IMG/VR virus record: IMGVR_UViG_3300021400_000369
Coordinates: 1 to 64,000 of that record
Reading direction: 5' to 3' (one strand)
DNA length: 64,000 nt
From: a virus
Taxonomy: Duplodnaviria > Caudoviricetes
Part shown: piece by piece, positions 21,696-54,400 of the stretch
Numbering within the stretch: the stretch's first letter is position 1
How the letters are laid out: every line of letters begins with the position of its first letter
Translations under genes and position numbers: made by a program
The notes under the pieces: model-generated
What the model saw: the letters and a program-made list of their open reading frames with translations, nothing else
Told to the model about the DNA's origin: nothing
Databases searched by the model: none

Positions 21696-21883
21696 ATTTT
21701 ACACCTTTTTATAATCATGCTTCATCAGGCACGTTTCATGCCGAATCATCAGCGGAAAAAATTCAACAATCTTTTTACATACGAATGATCATGGTTCATC
21801 ATTCAAATTCACCATAACCATTCATTCGCCCAAACCCACACCACACACCATTTTTTCGCGTCCTCCATTCAACCACTCACCCC

Positions 21884-21934: not shown

Positions 21935-22109
21935 CTACATATTATCACCATTTAATTTTGTTTTATATTTTTGATAAGGGAGAATATCAACTCCCAAGTT
22001 CGACAGTCTCATTCTTCCACAACCATTGTTTATCCTACATATTATCACCATTTAATTTTGTTTTATATTTTTGATAAGGGAGAATATCAACTCCCAAGTT
22101 CGACAGTCT
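21935..22109 (-). repeat. 75-bp identical direct repeat at 100-bp period (family B element + RBS + ATG-TAG)
   Basis: 21935-22009 equals 22035-22109. Confidence 0.9.
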
Positions 22110-23386
22110 TACTCTTTCGCAACTATTGTTTCAGCTAACATCTCTACTTCCCATCTTTTCCAAATGGTTGCAGCAAGTGTATCACCTATACGTTTGTAGA
22201 CAGGATTGCCACTTCGTGACATCCTGTTAAATTCTACAAAGATAGTGATGTATTCACATTCACCACCATCTTGAGTTGATGATTTTATTACCCCATTTTT
22301 GAGGATGACAATTTCATCCTCTTGTGGGTCATAATGATCCGCTTTCAATGTTTTTATGGAGGAGAAATATTCTCTTTCCATATTCTTCCATTTTTTCAAG
22401 GTGTTATAAACAACACCAAGATACTCACTATCGTACCATGCTCCGTATCTGTAATCCCAGACATTGAAGCAGCCTTGACCATTTCCGCCGTGGCAGATTG
22501 AGGTAATTAAATGTTGATTGTATGATTGCTCTCCATATATATCGACATAGTCGATTTCCAAGTATCTACTTTCATGTGACCCATATGATGATGGGTCATG
22601 GTATCCCCCGATATATATTCTTTTCACATTCATTTTATTCAGAAATATTGGATGGAATGAATCCTCCAATATTTCTATTTCATATGCGATCATTGATCGC
22701 ACATTTTCTATTAGGGATGTATCAATGCCTAATTTTTTATTTTCAGTCACCCATTCTTTCATATCTGAATGGATTTGTGAAACCCATTCATATACTTTGT
22801 TGATTTCTTCACTGGATATCTCTCCAACGAAGAAACCTAAGTATTCTTCGTTTACCGCGAAGCATCCTGCTCCATACCCACCATGTGTATGGTAGGTATG
22901 GAAGCCGTCTGCTTCCAATTTTGCTACATCATGTGAATACTCTGAAGAGGTTTCCTCTTCATTTAACACAATGCTTGGGTATTCTCCAAAGTATCCACTA
23001 TTTTCGATTTCTTTTGTCATCTCTTTTATTTCTTGCCATTTTACATTAGCAAGATTCATAATTTCATCATCGAAAGCGTCGAATTTGAATTCAATTCGAT
23101 TGTTCCAATTGTTCCAGCTAAGATGGAACAGAACGTTCTTTAATTTCATGTTATCACAAGGTTTGTTGTATTCACGAGGGTCTTCTTCATATCCGTGGGT
23201 ACGGTTTAATTGTGCCCACATATGGTTCCATGTAAAATCCAACTCTTCTTGTACTTCCGCAGGAATATATTTCACTATTAAACTTCTTGGGTCTACACCC
23301 AGAACGTATTTTTCACCTTTTATTTCAATAGGTACTTCCATAACGTTGTTATCATAAACAACACCAAATTTTCCTTTAAATATCAT
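22109..23386 (-). CDS. Hypothetical protein
   Basis: 425 aa; start corrected to MIFKGKF downstream of a family C element. Confidence 0.75.
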   Translation of the reverse strand: MIFKGKFGVVYDNNVMEVPIEIKGEKYVLGVDPRSLIVKYIPAEVQEELDFTWNHMWAQLNRTHGYEEDPREYNKPCDNMKLKNVLFHLSWNNWNNRIEFKFDAFDDEIMNLANVKWQEIKEMTKEIENSGYFGEYPSIVLNEEETSSEYSHDVAKLEADGFHTYHTHGGYGAGCFAVNEEYLGFFVGEISSEEINKVYEWVSQIHSDMKEWVTENKKLGIDTSLIENVRSMIAYEIEILEDSFHPIFLNKMNVKRIYIGGYHDPSSYGSHESRYLEIDYVDIYGEQSYNQHLITSICHGGNGQGCFNVWDYRYGAWYDSEYLGVVYNTLKKWKNMEREYFSSIKTLKADHYDPQEDEIVILKNGVIKSSTQDGGECEYITIFVEFNRMSRSGNPVYKRIGDTLAATIWKRWEVEMLAETIVAKE

Positions 23387-23466
23387 TTTTATCACCATTG
23401 TTATCATTGGATTTTTAAGACTCACCATGTCAAATCCTTGTTTTAATGGACATTATATGCAATAAA

Positions 23467-23511
23467 ACCCATCTGATGGAATCGAACCACCATTATTAAC
23501 CATTGACGGGT
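23467..23511 (-). ncRNA. tRNA-like module without anticodon arm (variant 1)
   Basis: ACCCGUC-AAUGGUUAAUAA-UGGUGG-UUCGAUU-CCAUCA-GAUGGGU. Confidence 0.6.
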
Positions 23512-23580
23512 AATTGGAGAGGGAGTCTTTCGACTCCCCTTAGATTGATGTGCTAGGGGGGTTTGCTGAGACCCCCTAAA

Positions 23581-23681
23581 GCCTGTATCATGGAATCGAA
23601 CCATGACGGATCACCAGAACAGGCAGCTACAGTCTCAAGGTTTCTATTTTCGCTTGGGGAGAAACCAGGTCAAAGAACCCA
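23581..23681 (-). ncRNA. Structured RNA: GGUUUCU/AGAAACC hairpin + 44-nt tRNA-like module
   Basis: Module 23581-23624 GCCUGU-UCUGGUGAUCC-GUCAUGG-UUCGAUU-CCAUGAU-ACAGGC, identical in 3 copies. Confidence 0.65.
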
Positions 23682-23688
23682 TTATCCA

Positions 23689-23928
23689 TTAATATTCGTA
23701 CGCTTCTATCATCTCCCAGGTTCGGTTTTCACCGATAATTTTGAGGTCTCTAATCACTTTCTTGACACTCTCTACACTTCCTGTATTGAGCGCTTCCTTC
23801 ATCTCCTCTATAAGGAGACTGATTAATTCAATCTCCTCCAGGAAGAATTCTTCTTCTAAAGATAGAATGAAGTTTGCAGCTTCATTGCAAACCTCCTCTA
23901 CCTCTTTTATCTTTTTTGCATCTTTCAT
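23689..23928 (-). CDS. Small acidic hypothetical protein
   Basis: Start corrected to MKDAKK, preceded by a family D element. Confidence 0.65.
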   Translation of the reverse strand: MKDAKKIKEVEEVCNEAANFILSLEEEFFLEEIELISLLIEEMKEALNTGSVESVKKVIRDLKIIGENRTWEMIEAYEY

Positions 23929-23992
23929 GTTCTCACCTTTTTTAACATGCTTCATCAGGCACACCTCATGCCGAATCATAAGCACAATATAT

Positions 23993-24313
23993 TTATATTA
24001 TTTTTGTGTAGGTTGTGAAACCATATATCTCATATTCCGCCATATGATAGCGGATCCTGTCTATATTATCATTAGCCTCTTTTGACCAATAGACTCCACG
24101 AATTAAATCATGGTTTAATAACTTCAGCATTTGTCTTGCTGTTATATTCAGCAAGACAGCTAATACTGCTATATCTGCGGTATTGCAGACATTTTCTCCA
24201 ATTTTAATTGGAGACTGAGCAAGTACAACTTCTGTAACTTCTGTAACTTCTTCTTCAACTTCTTCTTCAACTTCTTCTACAATTTCTTCTAAAAGTTCAA
24301 ATTCTTTTGTCAT
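23993..24313 (-). CDS. Hypothetical protein with acidic N-terminal EEEV repeats
   Basis: 106 aa, RBS GGAGGG. Confidence 0.65.
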   Translation of the reverse strand: MTKEFELLEEIVEEVEEEVEEEVTEVTEVVLAQSPIKIGENVCNTADIAVLAVLLNITARQMLKLLNHDLIRGVYWSKEANDNIDRIRYHMAEYEIYGFTTYTKII

Positions 24314-24420
24314 TCATAATCCCTCCTTTTATTATTGCAATGCTGGACAGGGATTGTCCTTGTTTATTGGCATGCATGATTCACCAGCCTATGATAATGA
24401 CAAAACTCATAGGACTTGAT

Positions 24421-24468
24421 AACTCATTAATGGAATCGAACCATCACTAAGCCCACCAGGTATGAGTT
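24421..24468 (-). ncRNA. tRNA-like module without anticodon arm (variant 2)
   Basis: AACUCAU-ACCUGGUGGGCUUAG-UGAUGG-UUCGAUU-CCAUUA-AUGAGUU. Confidence 0.6.
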
Positions 24469-24508
24469 ACACATGAACGAACTAGTTTGGGGTTGGAGAG
24501 ACCCCAAA

Positions 24509-24610
24509 GCCTGTATCATGGAATCGAACCATGACGGATCACCAGAACAGGCGGTTAACAACTCAAGGTTTCTATTCTCGCTTGGGGAGAAACCAGGGCA
24601 AACAACCCAC
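24509..24610 (-). ncRNA. Structured RNA: hairpin + 44-nt tRNA-like module (copy 2)
   Basis: Module 24509-24552 is identical to 23581-23624. Confidence 0.65.
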
Positions 24611-24617
24611 TATTACT

Positions 24618-24758
24618 TTAAAAACCTCTACAGAAGCGTCTGCGGGCTTCCAGAGTAATTCTTAAAGATTTTTGACTTTCTTCACTCTCTTTTCTGAGAG
24701 CAAGAATTTCTTGGTTTTTTTCCCAAGTCCTTTGTTCTTTTGCGGTTCTTTTTTCCAT
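24618..24758 (-). CDS. Small hypothetical protein (46 aa)
   Basis: MEKRTAKEQRTWEKNQE...RFCRGF*, RBS GGTGAT; not in the ORF track. Confidence 0.55.
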   Translation of the reverse strand: MEKRTAKEQRTWEKNQEILALRKESEESQKSLRITLEARRRFCRGF

Positions 24759-24776
24759 TTTATCACCTTTAAATCG

Positions 24777-25223
24777 TTAATATCCGAGCATCTCAAATGT
24801 TTTGTTTTCTAGTTTTGAAAAATCATCAAAATTATCTTTTTCTGAAAATTTGATATTATCAAATATCCAGTTGATAATTTTTTCCAGGAAGTCTTGAACT
24901 TCCTTATTAAAGCTCACTACTCTGCTTACATCCATACTGTATTCTGCCCAACAAGAGCCACAAAGGCTTCCTGATGTTGCTTCTACAGCGACTACCTCAG
25001 GGTAATTATATACGTTTAGATCACATCTGACTTCTAAACTCAGTCTGTATTGAGTTCTTCTGTCATGATCAACATTATGTACCAATAATGTCTCTGGGAA
25101 TTCGTTTCTGTCGATTGCTTTTTTCACTTCATTTTCAATTTCTGGTAAGCTGAAAATATAATGAATAAAGTCATTTTCAGTTTTTATGATACTCTCTACT
25201 TGTTCTTTTGTTAGTGTTTGCAT
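24777..25223 (-). CDS. Hypothetical protein
   Basis: 148 aa, RBS GGTGAT, preceded by a family C element. Confidence 0.7.
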   Translation of the reverse strand: MQTLTKEQVESIIKTENDFIHYIFSLPEIENEVKKAIDRNEFPETLLVHNVDHDRRTQYRLSLEVRCDLNVYNYPEVVAVEATSGSLCGSCWAEYSMDVSRVVSFNKEVQDFLEKIINWIFDNIKFSEKDNFDDFSKLENKTFEMLGY

Positions 25224-25276
25224 CTTTTATCACCATTTTTTTGTTTTTTCGGATTTTTAAGACTCACTATGTCAAA

Positions 25277-25380
25277 GCCTGTATCATGGAATCGAACCAT
25301 GACGGATCACCAGAACAGGCATCTACAATCTCAAGGTTTCTTGTTCTTGCTTATAGGTGGAAACCAGGACAAAGACACCT
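25277..25380 (-). ncRNA. Structured RNA: hairpin + 44-nt tRNA-like module (copy 3)
   Basis: Module 25277-25320 is identical to the other copies; the upstream GGUUUC/GAAACC stem is kept with a different loop. Confidence 0.65.
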
Positions 25381-25392
25381 ATTTATAGGGAG

Positions 25393-25635
25393 TTAAAATT
25401 TAACTTTTCCGCAATATAATGCGGATTTATTAACTCCCTTTTTCATGCTAACATTCTGATATCTTTGAGATACCAGTTTGTTAGAGGATTTCTGATTCAT
25501 TTTTGGCTCATTCTTTCTGAACTTTTTCTCGTTCTGATATTTAAATGAACGATAGAGAAGTTCAGAAATGAGTTCTATATCTTCCATATTTGTGATGGAG
25601 GATGATATGAATCTAACCCTCTCTTTACTGATCAT
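25393..25635 (-). CDS. Small basic hypothetical protein
   Basis: Start corrected to MISKERV, preceded by a family D element. Confidence 0.6.
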   Translation of the reverse strand: MISKERVRFISSSITNMEDIELISELLYRSFKYQNEKKFRKNEPKMNQKSSNKLVSQRYQNVSMKKGVNKSALYCGKVKF

Positions 25636-25722
25636 TCTTTCACCTCTTTTATGATCATGCTTCATCAGGCACATCTCATGCCGAATCATCAGCCATTTAA
25701 CATTAGCCGACTTCTACCTGAA

Positions 25723-25806
25723 TTAGGTATTTATGAAGTCAGCTTCTTCATATCTATCTTGTTCATTCATCATTGCGATGAATTGTCTCATGAAGTCACT
25801 ATACAT
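25723..25806 (-). CDS. Putative 27-aa peptide
   Basis: MYSDFMRQFIAMMNEQDRYEEADFINT*, strong RBS GGTGATAAT after a family C element. Confidence 0.45.
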   Translation of the reverse strand: MYSDFMRQFIAMMNEQDRYEEADFINT

Positions 25807-25862
25807 ATTATCACCATAACATTATAATTGGATTTTTAAGACTCACCATGTCATTTCAACAT

Positions 25863-26192
25863 CTATTTCCATCCCTGATCTGGATAATAGAACATCATAT
25901 GAACAATCGCATCCTTTGGTATGGATGTGTCATTGACGAACAAGTGATCGCCTGCGTTGTTTATGATAACCCCATCATCATAACCGATAAATATATCTAT
26001 ACTAATACAATTATCCAGTCTAATTGAGCACATACTAGGGGTTTGTTTCCCCTTGGTGGTATAGATATGAGGGTGGGGATACCAATCCCCATCGATGTCA
26101 ACGTCAGCGTGTTTAAATCCATAGTCGTCATTGAGTGTCTGATCGATGCGTTTTGTTGCATCCATTATCTGCTGTATATAATCTGCGTCCAT
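25863..26192 (-). CDS. Hypothetical protein (first gene of the leftward array)
   Basis: 109 aa, RBS GGTGAT, preceded by a family C element. Confidence 0.7.
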   Translation of the reverse strand: MDADYIQQIMDATKRIDQTLNDDYGFKHADVDIDGDWYPHPHIYTTKGKQTPSMCSIRLDNCISIDIFIGYDDGVIINNAGDHLFVNDTSIPKDAIVHMMFYYPDQGWK

Positions 26193-26538
26193 ACTATCAC
26201 CATTAATAATATTATAATTGGATTTTTAAGACTCACCATGTCATTTCAATAATTCAAAATTTCCTTAACATTATTCCCATACGAAACAAGAATAACATCA
26301 AGGAAACACTTCCGAACCCTTCCAATCCAACCCAACCAACCACCACACCCTAAAATTACACGAGCCAGAAAAGTATCATACATTCAACAAAATTTCCCCA
26401 AAAAATCAATAAACGAAAACAAAAAAAGAACCGCAACCCAACCATAAGGGGGGTGAAAATAAGGACATCGACTTTCTCTTTCTTTCAATGAATGTGGTGT
26501 TCTCACAATTTCATCCCGTTTTTCTCATACGAAAAAAC

Positions 26539-26552
26539 GAAACATTTAAATA
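26539..26552 (+). promoter_or_regulatory. BRE-TATA promoter for the DUF2828 unit
   Basis: GAAACA-TTTAAATA about 30 nt upstream of the structured leader. Confidence 0.55.
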
Positions 26553-26579
26553 CCATAAAAAACAGAGTATGTGTGTCAA

Positions 26580-26717
26580 AAGATTCATACAGCAAAAAAA
26601 CACACTAAAATAACTGAAAGATTTTGATTGAATGAATCTTGACGACATAGCACAGAACCAAAGATGGCTACAGCAAACATTAATGAAAAAGCAGGAAACT
26701 TTTCAGAGCCATCTTGG
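26580..26717 (+). ncRNA. Two tandem stem-loops sharing an AAGAU..-UACAGCAAA motif in the leader of the Ro60-like gene
   Basis: AAGATTCA-TACAGCAAA...TGAATCTT (26580-26640) and AAGATGGC-TACAGCAAA...GCCATCTT (26661-26715); the closing stems covary. Confidence 0.6.
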
Positions 26718-26730
26718 AGGTTTCATTATT

Positions 26731-28203
26731 ATGTTAGATGAATTAAAAAAAGAATTGAATACATCAGTAACCGAGAACGGGGCACGAGGCCACGCGTCTT
26801 CCGGGTCTTTGATAGTGGATTTCAACTTCATGGCTTCTTCGATGAGGGCCTGGGGCGCTGATGAGATCAGGGATTATTTCCTTGAGGTGTATCATGATGA
26901 TCCATTGTTGGCGCTCCGGTGGCTTTTTTATGCCCGTGACATCAGGATGGGCATGGGGGAACGCAGGCTTTTCCGCGAATGCTACAGGGCTTTGCCGGTC
27001 CCGGCGGCCGTGGCGAACTTGGCGAATATTCCTTTTTATGGCAGGTGGGATGACCTGGTTTCCTTGTTTGGCGTGATGGGTTCTGCCGTTGATGAGGCTG
27101 TGGTGCGGATTGTTTCCGCTCAGCTTGACTTGGACCTGCTCAGCATGGAACGCGGCGGTCCTGTTTCCTTGCTGGCGAAGTGGATGCCGAGCGAGAACGC
27201 TTCCTCCATTGAATCAAGACGCCTGGCCAGGAAACTGGCTAAGGCTCTGGACCTGTCATTCAAGGAGTACCGCAGGACCCTGTCATCCTTGAGGGGTTAT
27301 ATTGATGTTGTGGAATCAAGGATGTGCAATGGCGACTGGTCCGGGATCGATTATGAGAAAGTGCCTTCAATGGCCAATCTCAGGTATGGCGATGCCTTCA
27401 TGCGCCACGATCCTGCCCGAAGAGCCCAGTACCTTAGCGAGGTTTCCAATGGAAAGGCGGACTTCAACATGTCCGTGGCTTCCCCGGTGGATGTGGTTCA
27501 CAGGTATGTCGGCCGTCACAGAAGTCCTGATGAGCGGGATGATGTTCTTGAACTGGCTTGGAAGAACCTGTCCGATGTGTTCGTGGATGATGTCCTGGTT
27601 GTCGCGGACGGCAGCGGAAGCATGACATGGGCTCTCTCCGGGGTCTTGCCTTTGACTGTCGCGAACAGTCTCGCCTTATACACGGCGGAGCATAATAGTG
27701 GTGAGTTCAGGAATCATTTCATCACATTCAGCTCCCACCCCCGACTCATTAAAATCCCCGAAGACGCCACCCTCTATGAGAAATTGAGGATCATGTCCAG
27801 GTACATGGAATGTTCATCCACCAACATCGAGGCCGTGTTCAACCTCATCCTTGATGCCGCCGTCAATAATGAGATGACTCAGGATGACATGCCCGGATCC
27901 GTTTTGGTCATCTCCGACATGGAGTTCAACCAGGCGGTCTCAGGCGGCCCTGACAAGACACTCTTCGATGAGATTAAAGCCAAGTATGAGCATCATGGGT
28001 TTGTGATGCCCCGCCTGGTCTTCTGGAATGTCAGCAGCCGAACCGGGACAATCCCCGTCCGAACCAACAGCATGGGTGTCGCATTGGTCAGCGGATACTC
28101 CCAGAACACTCTCAAGATGGTCATGAGCGACAAGCTCGACCCGTATGATGTTCTTGTTGAGACATTGATGAGTCCTCGTTATGACCGGGTTGTTCCCGGA
28201 TAA
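26731..28203 (+). CDS. DUF2828-family Ro60/TROVE-like protein with C-terminal VWA domain
   Basis: TENGA, RDIRMGMGER, YGRWDDL, LAKWMPSE, VVADGSGSM (MIDAS), ISDMEF, VFWNV; start corrected to the ATG at 26731 after GGAGG; GC-rich relative to its flanks. Confidence 0.85.
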   Translation: MLDELKKELNTSVTENGARGHASSGSLIVDFNFMASSMRAWGADEIRDYFLEVYHDDPLLALRWLFYARDIRMGMGERRLFRECYRALPVPAAVANLANIPFYGRWDDLVSLFGVMGSAVDEAVVRIVSAQLDLDLLSMERGGPVSLLAKWMPSENASSIESRRLARKLAKALDLSFKEYRRTLSSLRGYIDVVESRMCNGDWSGIDYEKVPSMANLRYGDAFMRHDPARRAQYLSEVSNGKADFNMSVASPVDVVHRYVGRHRSPDERDDVLELAWKNLSDVFVDDVLVVADGSGSMTWALSGVLPLTVANSLALYTAEHNSGEFRNHFITFSSHPRLIKIPEDATLYEKLRIMSRYMECSSTNIEAVFNLILDAAVNNEMTQDDMPGSVLVISDMEFNQAVSGGPDKTLFDEIKAKYEHHGFVMPRLVFWNVSSRTGTIPVRTNSMGVALVSGYSQNTLKMVMSDKLDPYDVLVETLMSPRYDRVVPG

Positions 28204-29311: not shown

Positions 29312-29454
29312 TATAACAGCATCTCCATCATTGTTATCGCGACCTTTAAGTCGTCATCTGTCTTGTCGCACCGGGTCAGAGCCTTCGCTATGTTCTTCAC
29401 GGCTTTTTCCCTGTTTCCTACTTTTTTCATCTTCAATACATACTTGAGATTCAT
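29311..29454 (-). CDS. Small hypothetical protein (47 aa)
   Basis: ATGA overlap with the GIY-YIG gene and TAATG overlap with the next gene. Confidence 0.5.
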   Translation of the reverse strand: MNLKYVLKMKKVGNREKAVKNIAKALTRCDKTDDDLKVAITMMEMLL

Positions 29455-29891
29455 TTCAAGCTTATCCTTTTCATCCATTTGTTCACCTCGTCATCAGGTA
29501 TGTCATCGGTTATAACCTGTTCGTTTTCAGAATAATCATAATCAGGAGCCTCTTCTCTTTTTTTCAAGTAATCGGAATTATCATTATGTCCCGGACTGAC
29601 ATTATATCCTATTTCACTATTATTACTCCCATACATGTCAATATAATGTTCTTCAACAAGATCCAAAGCTTCGTCTGGAACATCATCCGCGATCGTAGCC
29701 ACTTTGAACGCGTCCTTCCCGTATTTTCTGATTCCTCTTGACAGGCAGTTGTTGTAAGCTCTCTTATTTTCATTATAAGCATCAAGCAAATGTTGTTTGA
29801 ATCTTGTATCCACATCCTGAACTGTTTGTCCGATGTATATTTTACCATTGATGATGTTCATCATCATGTATATTTTTCCACGGTTTTTCAT
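29451..29891 (-). CDS. GIY-YIG endonuclease (free-standing homing-endonuclease type)
   Basis: GKIYMMMNIINGKIYIGQT...RFKQH...E...GYN. Confidence 0.85.
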   Translation of the reverse strand: MKNRGKIYMMMNIINGKIYIGQTVQDVDTRFKQHLLDAYNENKRAYNNCLSRGIRKYGKDAFKVATIADDVPDEALDLVEEHYIDMYGSNNSEIGYNVSPGHNDNSDYLKKREEAPDYDYSENEQVITDDIPDDEVNKWMKRISLK

Positions 29892-32878: not shown

Positions 32879-33547
32879 ATGTATACATTATATTCAATCA
32901 CAAATAAGGATGGCAGAATATATTATGGCAGAACGCGAGATTTTCATAACCAGCTCTCGCTCCATGATGAATTTTTAAAAAAAAATATACATTTCAACAA
33001 GCTTCTTCAATGTGTTTATAATGATTATAAATATGATCCTGTTTTTGAAATCATAACCGAATCTGATGATCCAAAGGAAATCACTCTGGAATGCATTAAT
33101 CTCATCAATGAAGATAAGACATACATGGCCGCTAATGGGTATAATCTTTTTACGGATGGATCCGGATTGAAGTCAAGGTTTTTCAATCCGCTTCTTTATA
33201 ATGAAGACATATTCTTTCACTATTTAAAAAATGGAAAAACCTCCACTTTAAAAGAGTTTGATATATCTAATAATGTTTTAAATTATAAATTAAAAACATA
33301 TGGTTTATTAAATCAAAAGAAGCCTCTATTATCTTCATACGAAGAGGTTTACTCTTATGCACAATACGTCTTATTTTTAAATAAAGGATGGCTGAGTTCG
33401 GCGCAGATATTTGACCGATTGAATAATCATTATCAGATATCAAAACGTTTGAGGATCACTCCACACAAAATCGCGAAATCATTTACGGGGTATAAGAATA
33501 TAATAAAGCAAAAACACTCCGGTTTTATGAAATACAAGATGATATAA
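32879..33547 (+). CDS. GIY-YIG-like protein with C-terminal HTH-like region
   Basis: YTLYSITN..GRIYYGRT...H...N.HFNKLLQ...GYN; the catalytic Arg appears altered. Confidence 0.55.
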   Translation: MYTLYSITNKDGRIYYGRTRDFHNQLSLHDEFLKKNIHFNKLLQCVYNDYKYDPVFEIITESDDPKEITLECINLINEDKTYMAANGYNLFTDGSGLKSRFFNPLLYNEDIFFHYLKNGKTSTLKEFDISNNVLNYKLKTYGLLNQKKPLLSSYEEVYSYAQYVLFLNKGWLSSAQIFDRLNNHYQISKRLRITPHKIAKSFTGYKNIIKQKHSGFMKYKMI

Positions 33548-42418: not shown

Positions 42419-45400
42419 ATGGTTCAAGAAGATATGAATATTAACATGTCCTTTGTGGCAAAGGACATGAGCGGTATTGTAGCGGCTCAGACAAACCTCA
42501 ACCAACTGGTTGGAGTATTCTCCAATGTTGGTGAAGGAATCGCTAGAAATGTCGGAGCTATAGACGCCGCAGTAGCAACCGCAGGGGTTAGCCTCGGAAT
42601 TTTATCAACACAAGCCGCAAGGGCATATGGAGAATTTGAAAGAGGACAGGCTATTGTACAAACCGTTTCAGGTTCAACTAATGCGGAAATGCAGATACTC
42701 GGTCATACAGCTCAACAATTCTCATCAGAATTCAGGATGGGAATAGATGATGTGAACGAAGGTCTGACAACATTAGGCAGAGCCGGTTTGACAGATGTGA
42801 ACAATCAGATAGAAACATTAAGACAAGGATTTTCTTTGGCTAAGATTGAGGGTATGAATTTAGCTACGGCTTTGGAAGAGATTGTTCAAACCACTTCATT
42901 ATTAGGTGGTGACATTCAAAGTAGCGATTTTGGTATGGATACTGAAAAAGTCACCAATATGCTTGTAGGAACATCCTTAAGTGGCCCTTTGAACGTTAAT
43001 GATGTTGTTCAGACCCTGAAATATGTTGGAGGTACCGCGGCAGCCGCAGGAGCGAACTTAAGCAATGAAGACCTATTATACGACCTTATGGGTACTACAT
43101 CAGCTTTCGCTCAAAAAGGTGTAGTTGGTTCAATGGCCGGTACCGCATTAAGAGCCTTCCTGTCCAAACCAGCTACACAGGATAGTTCAGTATGGGAAGC
43201 GTTGAAGGAAATAGGCTTAGAACCGTATAGTCTCTGGGAAGATGGTCAACAGGAAATGAAACCAATCTCAGAACAGATTCGTATCATTCGTCAGGCAATG
43301 AAAGATAATAACAAATCCACAATGGACCAGCTTGAAATATGGGGGAAACTTGTTGGTACAAAGATGGGCCAGCAGATGATGAAGCTTGATGAAAATACGA
43401 TTCAAGAAAGCACCGCGAAAATCCGTGAGAAGGCAAGCGCGGAGACTTTGGCTAATAGGAGCATGCAGAACTTCGCTTCACAACAAGAAGAGATAATGAA
43501 ATCATTGGAAACCATTTGGAGAAATTATGGTAAGACCATAGCTGATGTCTTATCTCCAATACTTGAGATAATGAAGCCAATTGTTGATTTCCTTGCGAAC
43601 GATTCATATGGTAGTAAGTTTGCTATCTGGGGTATTGTCGCTATAGTTAATACTCTTTTAGGCAAGGCACTTGGTTCTATCCGAGAAGTATTGAAGTTTG
43701 TTACAGAATTGGTTTCCAAGGCTCGAGAACAGGTGAGTTTAACAACTCAAGAGTCAGCAACAACAGAAGAATTATTAGCTCAAAATAAAGCATTGACTGG
43801 TGAATTAGAAAAACAGGCTCAGGCGAAACAAAAGATAGCCACATACTCCAATGTTGATGAAACACATATGAGATACCAAACCGGAGGAAACGGTTTTGGA
43901 AAAACCTTATATATGCATCCAGATGCGGTTAACGCATTAACTCCCGCCCAAAGAACTCAAAATGGATTATTATTAAATGAATTACAAGCCCTTAAAGAAG
44001 TTGGGAACACAAATGCCGCCATCAAAGATGAGTTTAAGAATGTTGTTCAGAGTTATTATCAGCAAGAAGTCGCTCCGTTCTTAGCGATGGGAGGAGATAA
44101 AAGTGATTTCTCAGGTTATATTGATGCAAGTGTAATAGATGAGAATCTCCCTAATACAATGAAAATGTTTGGTGGCGATTACAGCCCAGAACTTCAATAT
44201 CACATCCGAAATGAATTAGGTCGACAAATACGCAATGCCGCATTATATGGGAAAACCGATGCGAACGGCAACATTAAAGTTAGATATATCGGCAATATGA
44301 TAGCGGATGCTTTTGGAGGAGCTATATATAAAAGCGGAGACTTTTCCGGAAACATCTTTTCATATGATAAAGGGCTTGGTCAATATGGTGTTTTGAATGC
44401 GAAAACAGGAACATTAGATACTCGTAAGGATTCAACAACAGGATATTTCGGTGTATCAAATTATGGACAATATGAAGACAAACCGGGAAATCCGGGAAAA
44501 GCCGTCGCCCTTATGGATCCAAATAAATTCATATCATCCGATGATGGCATGAATTATAGAAGAACTGTTTTAGATAGGATAAGTCGTGATTTAAGTAACA
44601 CTACTCAGGGTTTAAATGATATTAACAATTCTATCGTTTCCGCAACTAATGTATTTTCTCAGAGCATGCCTCAAAATAATACAGCGCTTCAGACGGATGC
44701 CGCTACGGGAAATTCAAACTCATCATCTGATTATAAGCGTAATTGGGGAGATAAGGTTTCAACGAATTGGGCTAACAATCTGAACCGTGCGGCTGATAAA
44801 TTATACGAAGCGGCAAGAAGATTAAGTAGTGATGATTTATATTATAATCGATTAGATAGAAATCGACGAGAATTCATAGGAAATTCATATGATGCAAATG
44901 GACAAAGAGTGAGCGGTAATGTTAAAATTAATCCAGCGACAAATCAGGTTTATATTAAAGCCGATGATGGAAAGTGGATTAATAAAGGAGCGCAATTCAG
45001 AGGCAAGAAAGATGAAGAGTACGAAGTTTTAGAATACTCTAATTATTCAAAAGATTCTTCATTTGAACAGAGAAAACCTGTTATTGTTAGGGATAGATAT
45101 AATAAAGTATTGCGATATGATTACAATAAGGATGATTATTATCCTGTAACTTTAAATGATACTCGTTCAGAACAAGCCAGATATGCAGCGGAAGCTAATA
45201 GAAGATTATATAACACAAGCAGAAGTGTTAAATATAATAAATTAGATTACGCTGGAAATGAATTTGTTCATTTCCAGGAAAATGATATAGATGAAGACAA
45301 GATCAAGAACCTCGGCTCCGACACTCGTCTGCAATCTCAGGCAACAGGACAAAAAGGACATTATGTCGCCAAGATCAATCCGGAAACAAACGCATTGGGA

Positions 45401-48400
45401 TTAGCTCATGCAATGGAAGATGACAGAGGTTTCCAATGGGTTACATGGAAATGGTACGCTGATAGAGGAAAAGGGTTAAGCAATGAAGAATTATCACCAT
45501 TTGGCTTGTCACATCCTGTGATTAATGGAAAAGAAGATAGAACAGTATTGCAGCATATGGTTGATGGGGTTGCAAAAGATATTGTTACAAATATGGAAAG
45601 AAACCCTGTTGCCGTGAGACAAGCGATAATCAATCAAAGAGATACTTTTGCGGGAGCTCAACGTCCATCAAAACAATATAGAGATTCCATATCAACAGGA
45701 GTGAACGGAATTGATATTGACAAATATTATCCTTATGGATATAGCGACAAATATGACACATATTTAGCTAAGAACAAAGAACAAACACCAAGGGATAATA
45801 CGGTCAATGGATTATTGAATACAATCGTAGATAGCTTAGGCACTATTAAAGGTCATACAAAACTCCTTAATAATATCAAGGGATATCAGGATAATATCAG
45901 TAGTAAAGTCAGCAGTATCTATTATGACTTGAATAATTTTATTAACAGAAACACATACACATCCTTGAATGGAGATCAGAAAAACAATATTGGATTAGAA
46001 TCAGGTAAGGCAGCGTTAGCTAGGGATTTAGGTGTTTATGATGACAACATGTCAGCAATGCGTCTTAATATTGATGAAAGATTAAGAAATATTGAAAATA
46101 CATATCCGTCCACCGGTAGCGGAAGATTCAAAACATATAATGATTCAGACATTCAAAGAGAATACAGTCAATTAATCGGGATCAAAAAAGAATTGGATAA
46201 CGCCGAATATGCTCTAAACGGAAGACCTTTTGGAAATCAGTTTAGGGATAAATTCCTAGCGATTGATACGGAAAACACGGGTCTCGATCCAAGCAAACAT
46301 AGGATGATTCAGGTTGGCGTTCAGAAATTTGAAAACGGAATAGCAACAACAGGTTTTGAGAAGAACATAAATCAGCCTGATGAAATCGCCCGACTTATGG
46401 AGCAAGAACCTGATTCTCCCGCTCTTAGAATGTTGCATAATATTGATGGGCTGAGATCAAATAACACTTTCGCAAATGGAGTTTCAGAACTCGATGCCTT
46501 AGTTGATTTGTTTAATATGTTCAAAGAGGAAGATGTTCTCTCAGGAGCAACTCCTTTAGTCGGTCAAAATATCACTTATGATATGAGTATGTTAAGGGAA
46601 GCCGTGCTTAGGAATGAAGAATTCTTGAAAGCCGCAGGATATGGCATTAATGACTTTAACAATATCAGATTCATAGACACTCAGACAATAGCATCAAGAG
46701 GATTTAATTTCTCAGATAACAAATTAGGCACAATCGCGAGAAACCTTGGCATTGATTTTAATGGAACACAACACACGGCACTTGCTGATGCGGATGTCAC
46801 CGGAAAGTCATTAATTGAAATGTCAAACATTATTGATGCCGACATACCTCGTGATACATTGCAACATATTATTAATATAGAGAATCTTTTAAGGAGACAA
46901 TTTGGAGGAACAAGACAAAGATTAAACTCTAACTCACAACAGTCATCAATAGGAGGCGAATCTTCCACAATAAATAATCCAGCTTCAGGCTTTGAAGACG
47001 AAACACTTATCCCCAATGAAAATAACGATTCTCAAAAAACTCGTAGAGGATTTCTTCGTTTTTCATTTAGAGATGGTTGGAGAAGGATTGCTGATGGTTC
47101 TACAGAATATTTACGTTCCCCAACGGGTGATAAATATCATCGTGCATTTGGAGAATCTGATTGGTTTGATGAAAATAATGAACGCGTTTCTACTATTTTA
47201 CCTCATAAGGAATTTATGCAATTAGAGGGACAGGCTCTTGAGGATGCTATTGCATATCAGAATACGGTCATCCCTAAACATGAGGAATATAATAAATTAA
47301 TGAGTCAACGTGAGCAATTGTGGAAACAATTTGAAGAAGCGAGAGACATTCATTATGCGGCTGGATTACATGGAGATGTTGAAACTTATGAAGCTTATGG
47401 TCAAACCGCAACCGTACTTCGAAATAAAGTAGAAGAAATTGATGATCAATTATATGAAATAATGCCGTTTTTAGATATTGATGAGGCAGAAGAACGCAGA
47501 TTAGAGTATGTTGGACAAAGAAAAGAGCTATTAGATCAGATTTCTGACTTGGAAAGTGATTTAGCGGTTAATGAAGGTAGACCTATTCCAAAAACGGAAC
47601 GTAGACCAAAGCCTGGAAGTAAATGGCGTTATGAAGACGCTAATCAAATCGCTAAAAACACACTTGACGAAGCTATTGAATCAGCGAAAAAAGAAGCGAT
47701 TACTTTTATGGGAACGAAGGAGTTTCAGGAACGTTTCCCAACAGAAGTTATTCCAGATAATTATATGAACGAACCCGGTAGGAATAATTTCAGAAAACCT
47801 AGGGCAGGCAGTAAGAATTATGAAAAACGTCTTGAAAAATATGAAACAAGAGTAAGAAATTATGAAAATAAGAGAGATGTTCTTGCGGAACAATTTGGAT
47901 ATTTAACAGACCTTCGTAATAGTCCTGCTTATAATGTCTTTGATGAGAAAGGGGAACTTGATGATTATTTATTAACAAATTCAACAAGCAAGAGTTTTGG
48001 TCCCGGATCAAGAAGCGGTAAAAAACTTTTAAATGATATTTGGAGAATAAACACAAGAAACAAAGAGAAGATTGAAGTCTCCAATGGGTATATAGAGATT
48101 GAAAGAGACGCCGCCGAAATCGAACAGGAAACAAGAGAAATCAGAGAAAAGAGTGAAAGGATAAAGGCAAAATTAGCAGCTAAAAAAGAACAACTGGCTC
48201 TCATTGAAGCGAAAATTGATAAAGCAGATCAAATGTCAATATACCATGAGAATGCCGCTTTCGATCCAAGAACTGATATCTTTAATCTTGATGATATCAG
48301 CAGGAGAACTGATGATACCCTTAATGTCATCGCTAAATATCTGCAAGGACTTGGATATGATATGACACTTGGAATGGTTGGAGATGATATTGTCAAAGCC

Positions 48401-51400
48401 ACAGTTCTCGGAAGTCTTGAAGACATGCCTTTGGTTTTACCCGAAGAGGTACAGAAAATCAGACAAGGTGCGTTGCCTGAACAAGTTCTCAGCAAGGATA
48501 TAATCGATGCAAGAATGTTGGATTTCACACCAAACGCTGGACCTATTACGGGTGTAGAGGCTGCTCAATTAGCAATGAACCAGATTACTCAATTAATTAT
48601 TGATAGTGGTAAGCACGAACATCTCGGTCAAGCTATGAACCCAATACAAATCATTGATAATATTTTTAGAGGAACAACTCCTAATCCATATACATTGATT
48701 TCAATGAAGGGAGGGTTTAACAATGAGGAACAGGCTAGGGCTTTTGCTCAGATGATTAATCCAGTTTTCTTGAAAGATGTCATGAGTGGCATGATTGATC
48801 GTGATAATTGGACATTGGACCTTGATCCTGACAGACTTCAATACTTTGGATTAACCCCTGATATGGTATTTGAGGAATTGCAGCATAGTTTCGGCAACAT
48901 TTCAATGTCACTCTCAGATAACCAGATAAAATTCAACCCTACCAATGATACAGATAAGCATCAAATAAGAAATTGGATAAGCGAAGCTCAAATTAATGGA
49001 ATTTCCGGAATCAAACCTATTGATTTTGATGGTCATATATATAAACATGATGTTGAAGGACAGCCTGAAGAGTGGCGTATTCTCACTCGGGGTAGTAATG
49101 TTGGTTTCTTAGATAGCATCCTAGGAACAGATGAATATAAAGACGCATTTGACTTCATTACAACTGATTTCAGAGATGTGGAAGCTACTCGAGGAGTCGA
49201 AGCTGCCAGAGGGGTGATAACATCTCAGTTAAAAGCAACATTACAACGTCTGGGGCTTAATATTTCAGATGATATTATTAAAGCTATTACTTATATGATG
49301 ACGCAATCAGGCAAAGTTATTTCTGTTGGTGATATTGTTCATCAAAGAAACAATCCTTTGGAGAGAGCGGCTTATGAAAATAGTATGAGAGTAATGTATG
49401 ATGCTGCCCTGCATGGGGAAACAGCTCATACCACCCCTACTGTCAATACCATTATCGGACAAGGTAGCGAACCTTTATTAGAAACATTGGATGCGGATAC
49501 AGCGGAGAGGATTATTCATGAAGAACACAGTTCTGATTACATCAAGACATTAGTTGATGAAAACTATGTTGGAGATCCTGGAGATATTGAGAAAATTTTG
49601 AAAAGTCAACGGGATGAGTATAATACAATGTTGGCTAAGGATACCCGTGAGAATCCACAACGGGCCAGGGTTGTTGCGGAGCAATCAAATCCTATTCCTC
49701 CTGCCGCTTTTAAGGATGCAAGAAGTCTTCAGTTATTACAGATGCTGGCTGCTGAGTCACTTAATAAGCAATATGAGATAATGAATGGTACACAGGGAGC
49801 ATTAGCTGATCTGGATAAACGCAGACAATTATTAATGGAAAAGAAAAATGCTTTGGCGGCGAAAATTGAAAGCGATGCTCAAATTGATGAAAATGATAGG
49901 ATCCAGTTGGAAGAACTGGAATCTCGGATCAAAGGTATTGACGCTGCAACCGCAGATATCAGACAAGGAAAAGCCGCTTTTAGTTATGCCGAATTGAACA
50001 GGTCTGCTAGTGAAACATTGAACCCTAACCCTCTTTACGAAGAAGATCTAGCTGTGATCAGGCAAAGTCTTCAGGAACGTGTTGATAATGGCAAAATGGC
50101 TCAATCAACAATGGATTATATTTTATCAGGAGAAGGAGAACAAAGGGGTCCGTCAGCATGGGATAGTGCTGGAATCCTTAAAGAAGAAAGTATTGAAACA
50201 ATGGCGTCAAAGGTTCGAGAATTACCTCCTAATGAGGTTTTCGAGGGAGTTGAGGATCTTTTTGAAGAGTTAAGAAGAAACTCAATCAATGATTATGACG
50301 CTTATCAATTTATTAATTGGATTGGCAAACAATTCGGAATGGAGTTAGATGGAAATGGTGTTGCTGATCCGACAAAAATTGTTGGTGGATTACGCAGCAA
50401 TGTTGGAGCGAAGGGTTTTCATGGAATGGGAGCTGTGCCAATTAGAATGGCAGGCATAATGCAGGTTATGGAAGCTCTTAGGGATTCTGACGCCAGCTTG
50501 CCTGAGGGAGCTATTCCAATGCCTCGTCTTGAAAAGACACAAGGCAACCTCAGCAACCCTATTTATAATATGACCGAGGGTTTGACTAATGAGGTTATGG
50601 CTGCGAAAGTTGTGGCCGACACATACCGTGTCACTCATGCCCGTATGGAAGATTTATTGTATAGTACAAGCATTATAGCTCGAACTGATGGAAGAACGGA
50701 TTTAAGATATCAAACAGAAGAACTTCAAAAATTGAATGACGAATTTGACGAGTTATTTAAAATCGATATAGACGGCAGAAAACGAAGTTTCTTTGGTTTG
50801 GATAATGAAGACTGGGCTGATCCGGCAATTGTTGAAGAATTCAACAAGCGAGTTAAGGAAAGAGAAGAATTCATTCAAAAATATTATGAACGAATGATCG
50901 CATTCCGAGAACAAATCAAGGAAGAAGATGCCGGAATCATCAGAGAACAAGAGAAAGCTATTCATGCGAATAGCGAACTCGGGTACTATCACACTTATGA
51001 TGAAGAAGGAAATTATCTTGGCCTTACTCCTACAATCAATAGGGATGGCGAATTCAGAGATATTGACAGAGAAAGAAAGACAATTCGTGCGTTAAAGGAA
51101 AGATATCCTAATATGCCTGAACTTGATGAACCAAAAATAACAACAATAGGGGATGTCACTCCTTCATTTAGTCAGGGATCGCTCCTTAATGATGAAGTTG
51201 AGAAAGGAGTATTCACCATTCCAGAACCAAATCAAGTCGAAAACATGGCTAAAACAATAGAGGGATTAAGTGATCGCAATAAGGCTCAACAAGAGAAATC
51301 CCAGGCTTATTATCTAGACAGAATTGTCAATGGTACATTAAGAGAACAACAAGAAGCCTACTCTCGTTTCTATGCAAAGAATTATGATGAGCTAATCAAC

Positions 51401-54400
51401 TGGTTCAGAGCATTCCATGTTGAAGATGATGTCATAAACAAATTCATATCAGAAAAAGGAATTCTTCATGACAATCTAAATATCGCCAGATTATTAAGTC
51501 AATTCGATGATGCTATAGACCAGGGTATCGCTCCGGTTCACACCGTCAAAGCACTCATTGATGAATTGGACGAGACGAGAAATCCTTATCGTAGAATGAA
51601 AATTCATGAAGGGCGTGGAGACACCCCTGAAAGCGTAAGAAGCTACCCATTCAAAATGCTGGCGGAAAATGAACTGTTAAGCGCACAAAAAGGATTCTTT
51701 GATCATGACAAGTTTATAGAATGGTGGAAAGAAGCTAGTGTAGAAGAACAGGAATTGTTTGGACGCAATATCAAACAAGGTGTTTATGCTCGTCAGGCCG
51801 ATACTCCAAATTTACCAGGTTTTGATGATTTCCTAACCGAAGAAGGTCAGAAGCAATTCGGAACAATAACTAATATGTTGAATTTTGAGGAGAAATTGGA
51901 GGAAATTAGGCAAATAGAATCTCAACAATTATCTGCTTTAGAAAGAATATTGAGCGAGGGAAGATTCATAAATCCTGATGATATGAATGAGATTAATGAT
52001 CAGTACTTCAATAGTGAAGAGTATAAGGCTTCTGAACGTGGTAAAAAATTACGAGAAGCAAGTGGATCATATAATTATGAAGGTGGAATGTTCTTTGGAA
52101 CAGGCAGCGAAATCATGGACGATTTAGCCGATGAATTTGCTTACAATATTAAGGAAGCCGATATGACACCATTTTGGTGGTCAGATTTGCCTGATAAAGA
52201 AGTGCCTAAAAATAAATCAGCTCCATCTTATAAAGGTATGATTACTGCCGGTGGTCAAATATATCCTGTGACAGTTTCTCCTGAACAAATTGAAAAAATT
52301 ACAAACAAAGTTACAGAAACAAGTCGTCGCAACCAGGCTAAAGCAGATGTTGACCGAGGATTTAATGCATCAAATGGCATGTTCTTTGGTACCGGAGTTG
52401 TTGATGAAAAAACATTGAAAGAAAGACTAAAAACTTCAGATTCAAAGCCAACAGAAGGTATACTTAGCCGTATTAAAAATTGGATGACAACACCAGGGGA
52501 ACTCAATCTCAAGGGACTTTCAACAGGATTTAAAGGATTAGGTTCAGCCGCTTTATCTGTTGCAAACATGATGGGTGGACCAATGATGGCCGCAATGACT
52601 ATCTTCCAAGGTGTTATGCAAGCTTATTCCGCAGTAGTTGAAAAGGAATCCGAAAGAATTACAAAAATCCAAACAGAGACATCCGAGGCTCAGGAGAGAT
52701 ATTCACAAGCTGAATCAAATTTCCTAACCAGCAAAGAACGAGCTGATGAAAACTTCTCCAATGTTAGTGAAGATGACAAGGAAACAGCAATCGAAGAAGC
52801 TTTGAAAGAAGGTCGGGATAAAGATGTTACAATGCAGGATCTCAGACTCTTAACGGATGAGAATCTCGAGTTAACTGAATCAGAACAGCTCAATAAAGAT
52901 TTAACCGCTCTTGAAGCAAATACTCGATTATTATATACATCACAATTGCAAATGACCGCGGCATTAAGAAATGAAGCTAATGTTGAAGATGATACCGGAC
53001 AATTAGGACATTACGGAACACAAGCTGATTTCACGGAATGGTATGAAGGTAGCGGTATTAAGAATTCTAAAGATGAATATGGTTTGGGAGATATACTTGA
53101 CATTAATGCTTGGAAAACAAAATTTGGACTCACAGATAAAGGAGAGGAATATCTTGAAGATATTGCTCAATCATCTGAAAATGGATTGCAGTTTACTACT
53201 CGTATTAAAAACGCTGAGGATTTGGAAACAGATTTTGAAAAGTTAGCGGCGTCATTTGATAAAAGGAATGTTGGCGGAAATGATATATCAACAATCTTTG
53301 GAGGAAATAAGGGATTATATCCTCAATATAATAGTTATTGGAATGATATTGGTACTCACAATGGAGGATACTCAGCAACTCAATTAGCGAAACTTGGAAA
53401 ACAATATGATAAACAATTAAACCGCTTTGAACGTAAGAACTTTAGATTTGAATTCAAAAATGGTCGATTAGTTCTAAAAAATATTCAAAACATTGATAAG
53501 AAATTCGCTAATCTTGGTCAGCGTTTAGGTATTAGTAAAATCGCGGCCCAACAATTAGTAATGTTACATACTTTAAACGATTTATATCAAGTTGCTGAAA
53601 CACAAGTTAAACCTGAATTAATTAATCAAACACAAGGATTATACTCTCAATTAGCTACCAGCAGCGGTATTCACTCTAATACTGGATCAAGTGTTAGTGT
53701 TGAGCAGGCAATGAACCAAGGTTTAGCTGTTATTAGTCAACAATTAAGTCAAGTTATTGTCAGTACAGCGAATGAAGCAGCTGTTGATTCCTATAACGCC
53801 GTATCTGATACTCCGGTAGAGAGTGTTGGAGAATTAAATAAAATAATTAAAGATGGAAATAAAAGCAGCGATGAGTATAAGAATGCGGTAGAAGCAATGG
53901 ATACCAAATATAAAACTCAAGCATATCAGGCGAAATATTATGAAAGATTGAACGCCGGAGATACTCCAGCCGAAGCTATGAAGAAAGCTCAAAAAAGTTC
54001 TGAAGAATATTTGAAAAAATATGGAGTAGAAAATGGTTCATATTGGAAAACCCATCAAAAGTATACTGATATAGCTAAGGAATATGAGAGTCCAACTATT
54101 GGAAATTTCATGAAAAGACTTGCATCAAATATTCCTGGTTTTCCATCAAGTGGTTATTCAGATTATAACGCAACAGATATCATGAAACTTAATGACGAGG
54201 TTGTTAAGAATAATCCAGAAGTTATTAAATACTTGATGAACTTAACAAACACAATCAATGAAAGCAATATGGATGCTGAAGATGCTGCTGATGATGAGAC
54301 AGGTGGTTCCGGAAGAGGCGGTGGCAAAGATTATGACAACAACAACAGGCAGCGTTATGTTCAATTAGCCATCTGTAACAAGAAAGCCATACCAAAACTC

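Follow-up and report, generated by a model that had tools for sequence, protein, structure and literature searches.

Anticodon-less tRNA-like modules between early genes of a probable methanogen virus belong to a wider viral family and may act as t-elements

What role is played by five small transfer RNA (tRNA)-like modules that lie between the early genes of a tailed virus? The question arises from a 64,000-nucleotide (nt) stretch of DNA (hereafter the window), positions 1 to 64,000 of IMG/VR record IMGVR_UViG_3300021400_000369, which represents an uncultivated tailed virus and is 97 kb long, an estimated 66% complete, and 36% G+C. A first-pass annotation, made from the sequence alone, had noted five anticodon-less modules on the minus strand between 23467 and 25380, and had offered three roles for them: tRNA-punctuation processing sites, decoys for tRNA-targeting defences, or Y-like RNAs for a nearby Ro60-like gene. 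We find that the modules belong to a structurally conserved family of viral elements. We give about an even chance to the reading that they are viral t-elements, that is, cis signals at which RNase P and tRNase Z would cleave, thereby punctuating the polycistronic early transcript.

The five modules that the first-pass annotation had described are indeed present. Read on the minus strand, each is 44–48 nt long and is built around the core GGTTCGATTCC, of which there are five exact copies, all on the minus strand and spanning 1.8 kb (23478–25298); no further exact copy was found in the whole 97-kb record. Shuffled versions of the window contained, on average, 1.01 matches to this core with up to one mismatch, and six matches were reached in none of 100 shuffles. 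Each module has a closing stem of 6–7 base pairs (bp), a linker of 11–15 nt that contains UGGU, and a T-arm of 6–7 bp with the loop UUCGAUU. M1 (25277–25320), M2 (24509–24552), and M4 (23581–23624) are identical, with stems GCCUGU/ACAGGC (6 bp) and GUCAUGG/CCAUGAU (7 bp) and a UC-UGGU-GA mini-hairpin between them. M3 (24421–24468) has the same architecture in another sequence, namely AACUCAU/AUGAGUU (7 bp), a CC-UGGU-GG mini-hairpin, and UGAUGG/CCAUUA (6 bp). M5 (23467–23511) is a third variant, with ACCCGUC/GAUGGGU (7 bp), an A-UGGU-U loop, and UGGUGG/CCAUCA (6 bp). As had been claimed, all three stem variants are paired on reading the sequence, closing stem and T-stem add up to 13 stacked pairs in every module, and no CCA is encoded (the 3' flanks read UUUG, AUCA, and UUUA). 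An anticodon arm is absent from all five, the linker being only 11–15 nt long. The UGG was present as described; its portrayal as purely single-stranded has to be revised, since it is placed in a mini-hairpin of 2–4 bp with a UGGN tetraloop.

For M1/M2/M4 and for M5, the minimum free energy fold consists of the closing stem and the T-arm (z = –2.3 to –2.65); for M3, it is a competing alternative (z = –1.94). A covariance model (R1), built from M1, M2, M4, and M5 only, recovered M3 with 31.6 bits (E = 3e-7); M1 itself scored 74.2 bits and M5 62 bits. ARAGORN, which the first-pass annotation had expected to be negative, called no tRNA or transfer-messenger RNA (tmRNA) gene, either in the window or elsewhere in the 97-kb record. 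Likewise, no Rfam 15 family overlapped any module at E ≤ 10, no RF00005 match was seen over 22000–27000, and no covariance match to any Y-RNA family that this release may include was obtained at the same threshold.

Could the modules be pieces of split or permuted archaeal tRNAs, with the D and anticodon parts supplied in trans? Split tRNAs are known in archaea, and the host here is probably archaeal. However, both acceptor strands are present in cis, each module is self-closing with no free end for a partner, and ARAGORN finds neither tRNA parts nor a partner in the 97-kb record. The same architecture also occurs in bacteriophages, and we regard this origin as extremely improbable. We also ruled out a remnant of an attP or other integration site, because both acceptor strands are present and because the modules are found within operons and not at the ends of proviruses.

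Next, we asked how widely the modules occur. A pattern scan of IMG/VR (CTGGTG-N8-12-GGTTCGATTCC) returned at least 119 stretches, and the DNA of 80 was examined. The T-stem had at least 5 bp at 65 of the 80 loci, which were hence testable. At 37 of these 65, the 7 nt directly before CTGGTG can form at least six of seven pairs with the 7 nt that immediately follow the T-stem (7/7 in 14 loci); when the 5' strand was instead taken 100 nt further away, 2/65 paired. In an alignment of 40 model-fitted matches (A5, 38 distinct rows), 96.2% of stem cells are paired, compared with 44–55% for slid partners, and both sides have changed in 12 of 13 pairs; the A5 loci had been pre-selected for a closing stem, and helix 1 is therefore biased. 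A second alignment (A7) of 20 modules, 14 of them from outside the window, gave 96.3% versus 43–49%. Twelve of those 14 lack the exact scan pattern, so they could be found by the model only. The mini-hairpin is conserved as well: among 49 modules with a UGGN loop, its closing pair forms in 42 and its second pair in 37 (U-A, A-U, G-C, or C-G), against 18 in the slid control.

The model of the family as a whole (R2) assigned 44–61 bits to the window modules (60.7 bits for M1, 44.5 for M3, and 47.4 for M5). On 591 canonical tRNAs, contained in 1.18 Mb of tRNA-rich phage DNA, it produced partial T-arm matches only, the best at 22.7 bits. Many members have a 7+5 stack, the canonical 12 pairs; others, including those of the window, have 13. 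A looser metagenome pattern, GAAACCTTGAG-N14-24-CTGGTG, gave at least 117 matches but proved too loose, with a module in none of the 80 loci examined. Family members were found in dozens of viral contigs, among them the T7-like cyanophage S-TIP37, and in both bacterial and archaeal viruses.

The compensatory changes bear on whether the modules are decayed tRNA genes, that is, functionless pseudogenes left by internal deletion. Decay would be in keeping with a virus record that lacks an intact tRNA gene, and T-arm sequences identical to that of M1 do occur in real phage tRNAs (for example, at locus L023). Nevertheless, the three variants here and dozens elsewhere share a deletion-like architecture, covarying stems, and the mini-hairpin. 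Independent decay would not converge in this way; the covariation contradicts such an origin, which we consider very unlikely. Aminoacylation or a tmRNA-like role in rescue was ruled out, no identity pair being conserved.

Rfam 15, run on 20 member loci, offered no family for the element itself. In the open-access literature (PMC and bioRxiv), we found no account of anticodon-less tRNA-like elements in phages. One of the 10,006 candidate viral RNAs of PMC10690425 could be the module family. RNAs of a t-element-like kind are already known, and the viral family itself appears to be uncatalogued, although a prior description is possible.

Upon inspection of their genomic placement, we noted that family members tend to lie between genes of the same orientation. 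Among 33 modules, the nearest open reading frame (ORF) on the upstream side has the same orientation as the module 24 times out of 30, and the nearest one downstream 23 times out of 31; at least two copies are present in 11/36 records. The richest records are L328 (G039), with seven modules, and L329, with four, all on the gene strand among small ORFs. Nine of these 11 modules begin 0–22 nt past the stop codon of a co-oriented ORF, and a co-oriented start codon lies 26–78 nt downstream of eight. In L328, a canonical tRNA-Arg occupies the equivalent slot. Several modules of L328 are also preceded by UAAGUAGUA-like words, which put stop codons in more than one frame just ahead of the closing stem.

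Other members show similar positions. In L133, the module directly follows a canonical tRNA and directly precedes a ribosome-binding site and start codon; in L136, it lies between T7-like scaffold and capsid genes; L154 and L139 have tandem pairs upstream of terS; and in L112, hammerhead and twister ribozymes lie ~350 nt upstream of the module. In S-TIP37, a cultured phage of Synechococcus WH8109, the module (L199; MH540083 20516–20561) scores 31.8 bits with R1 and starts at the ORF 31 (38 aa) stop codon, 115 nt before the capsid gene. This short ORF follows a glutamine-II riboswitch after psbA, and the module is unannotated there. We noted that the riboswitch-controlled ORF ends within the 5' closing strand of the module (L199 1582–1738); an RNase P cut at this module would remove its stop codon. 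On C34, a bacterial-phage contig of the metagenome-assembled genome (MAG) G001, one strand carries, in this order, three tRNAs, a gene with weak DUF2828 and DUF7788 matches, a glucosaminidase gene, the module, and a hairpin resembling a terminator.

In the window, the modules lie 64–72 nt after three minus-strand stop codons (25393, 24618, and 23689), and the order after each stop is a hairpin followed by an M1-type module. The hairpins H1 (25335–25365, GGUUUC...GAAACC followed by UUGAG, 14 nt upstream of M1), H2 (24567–24594, upstream of M2), and H3 (23639–23666, upstream of M4) are all on the minus strand and belong to repeat family D1. M1, M2, and M4 are part of a longer repeat: the GGUUUC/GAAACC hairpin, already recognized by the first-pass annotation as shared by the identical copies, is invariant across them together with the UUGAG word. 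A 47-nt block from the module to a trailing UUU is invariant too, while the 9-nt spacer, the hairpin loop, and the downstream DNA vary. After its module, spacer 1 continues with a motif termed D4 and then the ribosome-binding site of the next gene. Spacers 2 and 3 instead continue with a G+C-rich hairpin, read from the minus-strand sequence as UUUGGGGU...ACCCCAAA between M2 and M3 (24486–24508) and as UAGGGGGU...ACCCCCCUA between M4 and M5 (23554–23578), and then a second module of different sequence. Ahead of that second module, spacer 3 has an additional minus-strand hairpin with a GAAA tetraloop (23519–23538), which on the same reading contains GUCGAAAG. The GAAA hairpin had been put forward as confirming the minus-strand sense; as proof of strand it is weak, and the sense is fixed by gene orientation, the T-loop, and the UGG motifs.

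The D4 motif (UGACAURGUGAGUCUUAAAAAUCC) occurs in four minus-strand copies before early-gene ribosome-binding sites, at 23395–23438 (3' of M5), 25237–25280 (directly 3' of M1), 25816–25859, and 26206–26249. It holds the TATA-like UUAAAAAU, whose spacing to the ribosome-binding site matches neither a bacterial nor an obvious archaeal promoter. A scan for sigma-70 promoters and intrinsic terminators, not made for an archaeal host, gave no interpretable output. A search of RNA runs listed none that contains the region; in the run from the probable source sample, matches were limited to three short pieces in the low-complexity stretch 24238–24277 and were uninformative on expression.

The invariance of 47 nt over three copies amid varying flanks would also be expected of recombination patches, in which the intergenic blocks (hairpin, module, hairpins) supply homology for the shuffling of small early-gene cassettes and the tRNA shape is incidental or secondary. 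Such an arrangement would resemble the promoter stem-loop cassettes of T4-type phages. Moreover, segments that carry modules turn up again, at 85–99% likeness, on contigs of three further animal-gut runs, joined in other orders or with other DNA between them. Examples include 23847 joined to 24308 with 574 other letters, 23682 joined to 25236 with 138 other letters, and 24468 joined to 23629. The reordered segments suggest cassette exchange at module blocks, though the joints come from short contigs at an 85% likeness threshold and could be produced by repeats or other organisms; stretches without contig cover (such as the ORFs at 24617–25222) carry no meaning of absence. However, recombination leaves unexplained the compensatory stem changes in unrelated viruses, the UGGN and T-loop motifs, and the members that occur in single copy. 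As the primary explanation we judge it unlikely; it may be a real secondary property of the modules.

Which host would have to read these elements? For TerL, the portal, and the major capsid protein, the best or only match among GenBank phages is Methanobacterium virus PhiF1 (30% identity, 3e-52; 34%, 9e-45; and 23%, 2e-6, respectively). A tail-region protein (G000 69888–70958, equivalent to L203 7888–8958) scores 52.5 bits for PF09373, a pseudomurein-binding repeat whose cut-off is 24.9, and a transglutaminase-core protein is encoded at 56511–57941 of the window. Pseudomurein is not known outside Methanobacteriales and Methanopyrales. Because of the PF09373 repeat, the transglutaminase core, and the PhiF1-like TerL, portal, and capsid, the gene content points to a virus of Methanobacteriales with a genome of about 150 kb. 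Animal-gut DNA runs contain the module region as well, and we consider a methanogen of this order, living in the gut or rumen, to be the probable host.

An alignment search of genome contigs for TerL relatives found three loci at 45% identity, all in gut or rumen MAGs that are labelled as three different bacterial taxa; we take these to be mis-binned viral contigs. No module was found in the three loci themselves, and G001, one of these MAGs, has four modules on its other contigs. In the 40 kb of PhiF1 that were scanned, there was no module, and ARAGORN found no tRNA. Searches of viral contigs yielded no relatives of the 439-aa neighbour protein or of TerL as single queries and no match to a 31-nt exact stretch of M1; blastn of 22000–26500 against GenBank phages also gave no match.

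Several other features of this virus were noted in passing. A 47-nt repeat with two CUGAUGA boxes around a GGCA...UGCC hairpin occurs on the minus strand at 21707–21753, 23937–23983, and 25647–25693, adjoining, in three early genes, the upstream side of the ribosome-binding site and ATG. Its appearance is that of a k-turn or C/D-box motif, as would suit an archaeal host (L7Ae); in Rfam it gave only a weak match to the eL15-Euryarchaeota leader (E = 9.9). There is also a 97-nt tandem duplication (21935–22131, 95% identity) in an RBS-like (ribosome-binding-site-like) region just upstream of or at the end of the 439-aa gene. A 4076-aa tape-measure-like protein (42419–54649, plus strand) has an RNase_T exonuclease domain at residues 1281–1462 and a sub-threshold RNA_pol_Rpb1_5 match at residues 2163–2306. 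Two GIY-YIG endonuclease genes, possibly encoding homing endonucleases, flank the terminase and portal genes (29451–29891 on the minus strand and 32879–33547 on the plus strand).

How might such elements work? We propose that the modules are transcribed within the minus-strand early polycistronic RNA and that each would fold as a tRNA elbow, a 12–13 bp stack of acceptor stem and T-arm capped by the T-loop, with the GG of the UGGU mini-D-hairpin docking against the T-loop. The tRNA-maturation enzymes of the host would recognize this shape. Cleavage by RNase P would fall where the closing stem begins on its 5' side, and tRNase Z would cleave just past the discriminator base, at which no CCA is encoded. 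The cuts would release separate messenger RNAs (mRNAs) with defined ends, together with a by-product of ~45 nt that is perhaps CCA-tailed.

Like a t-element, each module has an acceptor-like stem stacked coaxially on a T-arm with GGTTCRANYCC; as far as gene geometry goes, the modules also lie at or between cistron ends on the transcribed strand. They retain what structure-reading tRNA enzymes need and drop what decoding needs. Because the family is found in both bacterial and archaeal viruses, its partner should be one that is present in every host, a description that fits RNase P. The precedent of t-elements in Haloferax is relevant since the host is probably archaeal. Among the three roles first proposed, punctuation fares best, given the position of the modules in gaps, their starts after stop codons, and the tRNA in an equivalent slot; the cleavage that it calls for is what we infer.

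Several points weigh against punctuation. Transcription, cleavage, and effects on mRNA fate or stability are postulated steps, in contrast to the structure, its compensatory conservation, and the placement between co-oriented genes, which we observed directly, as we did the signs of a probable archaeal host. One cut site would suffice, yet modules occur in tandem pairs (M2–M3 and M4–M5 here, and in L154 and L139). The module of G001:C34 is the last element of its operon, with a terminator-like hairpin but no further cistron after it, and so resembles a small-RNA gene. The window stacks have 13 bp instead of the canonical 12, whereas many relatives are 7+5. If RNase P cut right past a stop codon, the upstream mRNA would lack any structure to protect its 3' end. 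Lastly, if D4, which lies between M1 or M5 and the next genes, is a promoter, then those two modules would be 3'-terminal and not internal.

Some of these same observations would suit a product that acts in trans. On this main alternative, the modules would mature in a tRNA-like manner into tRNA-mimic RNAs of ~45 nt, perhaps with CCA, that serve as decoys or sponges or as the Y-RNA analogue of the Ro60-like protein; we hold this to be possible, though clearly less probable than punctuation. Five copies, three variants, and tandem pairs both here and in L154 and L139 would fit a need for product dosage or diversity, and the G001:C34 module closes a tRNA-containing operon, after the weak DUF2828 and DUF7788 gene and before the terminator-like hairpin. 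On the other hand, a free-standing RNA gene has no need of the tight placement after stop codons. As decoys, the modules could target factors that read the acceptor/T-arm elbow, among them modifying enzymes and defence nucleases directed at tRNA; they offer, however, no anticodon loop as bait for anticodon nucleases.

The Y-RNA version draws on a neighbouring gene at 26632–28203, on the plus strand and hence opposite to the modules, 1.3 kb from M1. By Pfam, it encodes a DUF2828/DUF7788 protein (phrog_850, 'RNA-binding protein') with a predicted Ro60/TROVE and vWA fold. Foldseek with its AlphaFold model (pLDDT 81.1) returned 9kop, 1yvr, 2i91, 2nvo, and 9l5y (E = 6e-9 to 5e-7, TM 0.33–0.56, ~500 columns). 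The predicted structure thus matches Ro60/TROVE over its full length, an alpha-solenoid ring followed by a vWA domain, and this part of the first-pass annotation's Ro60 proposal stands at the level of modelling. Relatives of the gene at 73 viral loci (L006–L078) sit in phage tRNA arrays: tRNAs are present at 55/73 loci and within 2 kb at 41/73, a tRNA lies no more than 2 kb upstream at 36 of the 60 loci with enough upstream flank, and 591/591 tRNAs are on the strand of the DUF2828/DUF7788 gene. YrlA, a bacterial partner of Ro60, has a tRNA-like domain (PMC4201824). In addition, 9 nt before M5, the GAAA hairpin contains GUCGAAAG, a match to GNCGAAN0-1G, the word that characterizes bacterial Y RNAs.

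The remainder of the Ro60 proposal did not hold up as well. The 73 DUF2828 loci yielded no complete module. DUF7788 was absent from all 36 other module-bearing viral records, including nine of at least 90% completeness, in a search whose positive control on the record of the window worked; the family as a whole is therefore not dependent on a virus-encoded Ro60. PMC4201824 gives the GNCGAAN0-1G word for bacterial Y RNAs and places YrlA genes within ~4 kb of the Ro60 gene on the same strand, whereas the modules are 1.3–3.2 kb away on the opposite strand and their topology is unlike that of YrlA. The word occurs in none of the module closing stems, which are open-ended; its sole instance, GUCGAAAG, is in the separate hairpin upstream of M5 and may be due to chance, the expectation in the window spacers being ~0.1–0.4 by our own estimate. 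We find it rather doubtful that the modules, matured like tRNAs, form an anticodon-less 'elbow RNA' class acting in trans as a Y-RNA-like partner of the Ro60-like protein or as a sponge for host factors; their fixed intercistronic position would then merely secure co-expression.

We also noted two tRNA-like genes of ~115–120 nt with a ~50-nt insertion in the anticodon region (L006 9361–9482 and 9688–9802; also L046 9360–9478), which precede the closest relatives of the Ro60-like gene by 200–640 nt. They escape ARAGORN, whereas Rfam assigns them to tRNA or, with weak scores, to tmRNA. The word ACAGCAA occurs six times around these genes and again upstream of the G001:C34 module. They could be intron-bearing tRNAs or Y-RNA-like partners.

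If the modules do punctuate viral transcripts, then a dedicated tRNA mimic of 45 nt serves to split up the operons of many phages and of one or more archaeal viruses, which borrow RNA-processing machinery that is found in every host. The principle of tRNA punctuation and t-elements, known from organelles and Haloferax, would then also apply to viruses that infect two domains. The modules would also provide a compact, portable, and probably host-independent processing signal for synthetic operons, a use already made of Haloferax t-elements. The RNA family is missing from Rfam 15, and phage annotation skips it or, in S-TIP37, partly covers it with an ORF call. Should the 'elbow RNA' reading be true instead, it would be the first such system in an archaeal virus; independently, the Ro60-like protein within phage tRNA arrays is a separate lead on the ligands of viral Ro60 proteins.

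Among known systems, tRNA-shaped elements between cistrons set mRNA ends in mitochondria, where the punctuating elements are functional tRNAs, whereas the modules cannot decode. The mascRNA of MALAT1, one of the tRNA-like 3'-end signals, is a tRNA-like fold in a long transcript, whose end is defined when RNase P and RNase Z cut at this fold; it differs from the modules in being eukaryotic and nuclear, in forming a cloverleaf with an anticodon-like arm, and in its unrelated sequence. The tRNA-like domain of tmRNA and the mRNA-less tmRNA of jakobid mitochondria share with the modules an acceptor stem, a GG D-loop analogue, a T-arm, and the lack of an anticodon arm. In the modules, however, G3:U70 is not conserved, the third closing-stem pair being mostly C-G, G-C, or U-A (CG 14, GC 9, UA 8, AU 2, GU 1, UG 1); ARAGORN found no tmRNA, and Rfam gave no tmRNA match.

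YrlA (PMC4201824) is likewise a tRNA mimic with a T-arm and a D-arm near a Ro60/TROVE gene, and that of M. smegmatis is cut by RNase P and gains CCA. It has a Ro-binding stem formed from its 5' and 3' ends, a closed 'acceptor' stem-loop, and the same strand as Ro60; by contrast, the modules have an open acceptor stem, no terminal Ro-binding stem, the opposite strand, and no Rfam match. The t-elements of plant mitochondria and of Haloferax volcanii are, like the modules, non-canonical tRNA-like elements with a GGTTCRANYCC T-arm and an acceptor-like stem; their positions are at the ends of mRNAs or rRNAs. Those of plant mitochondria were found via GGTTCRANYCC at mRNA 5' and 3' ends and are taken as RNase P and RNase Z signals (PMC1920247). 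In Haloferax, tRNase Z cuts a t-element that precedes 5S rRNA, and when t-elements were placed on both sides of a CRISPR RNA (crRNA), RNase P and tRNase Z processed them in vivo (PMC4326828). The modules, which we liken to t-elements by architecture and not by sequence comparison, are distinguished by being virus-encoded, by forming a sequence-defined family, by a UGGN mini-D-hairpin in the absence of an anticodon arm, and by their number, with up to seven in one record.

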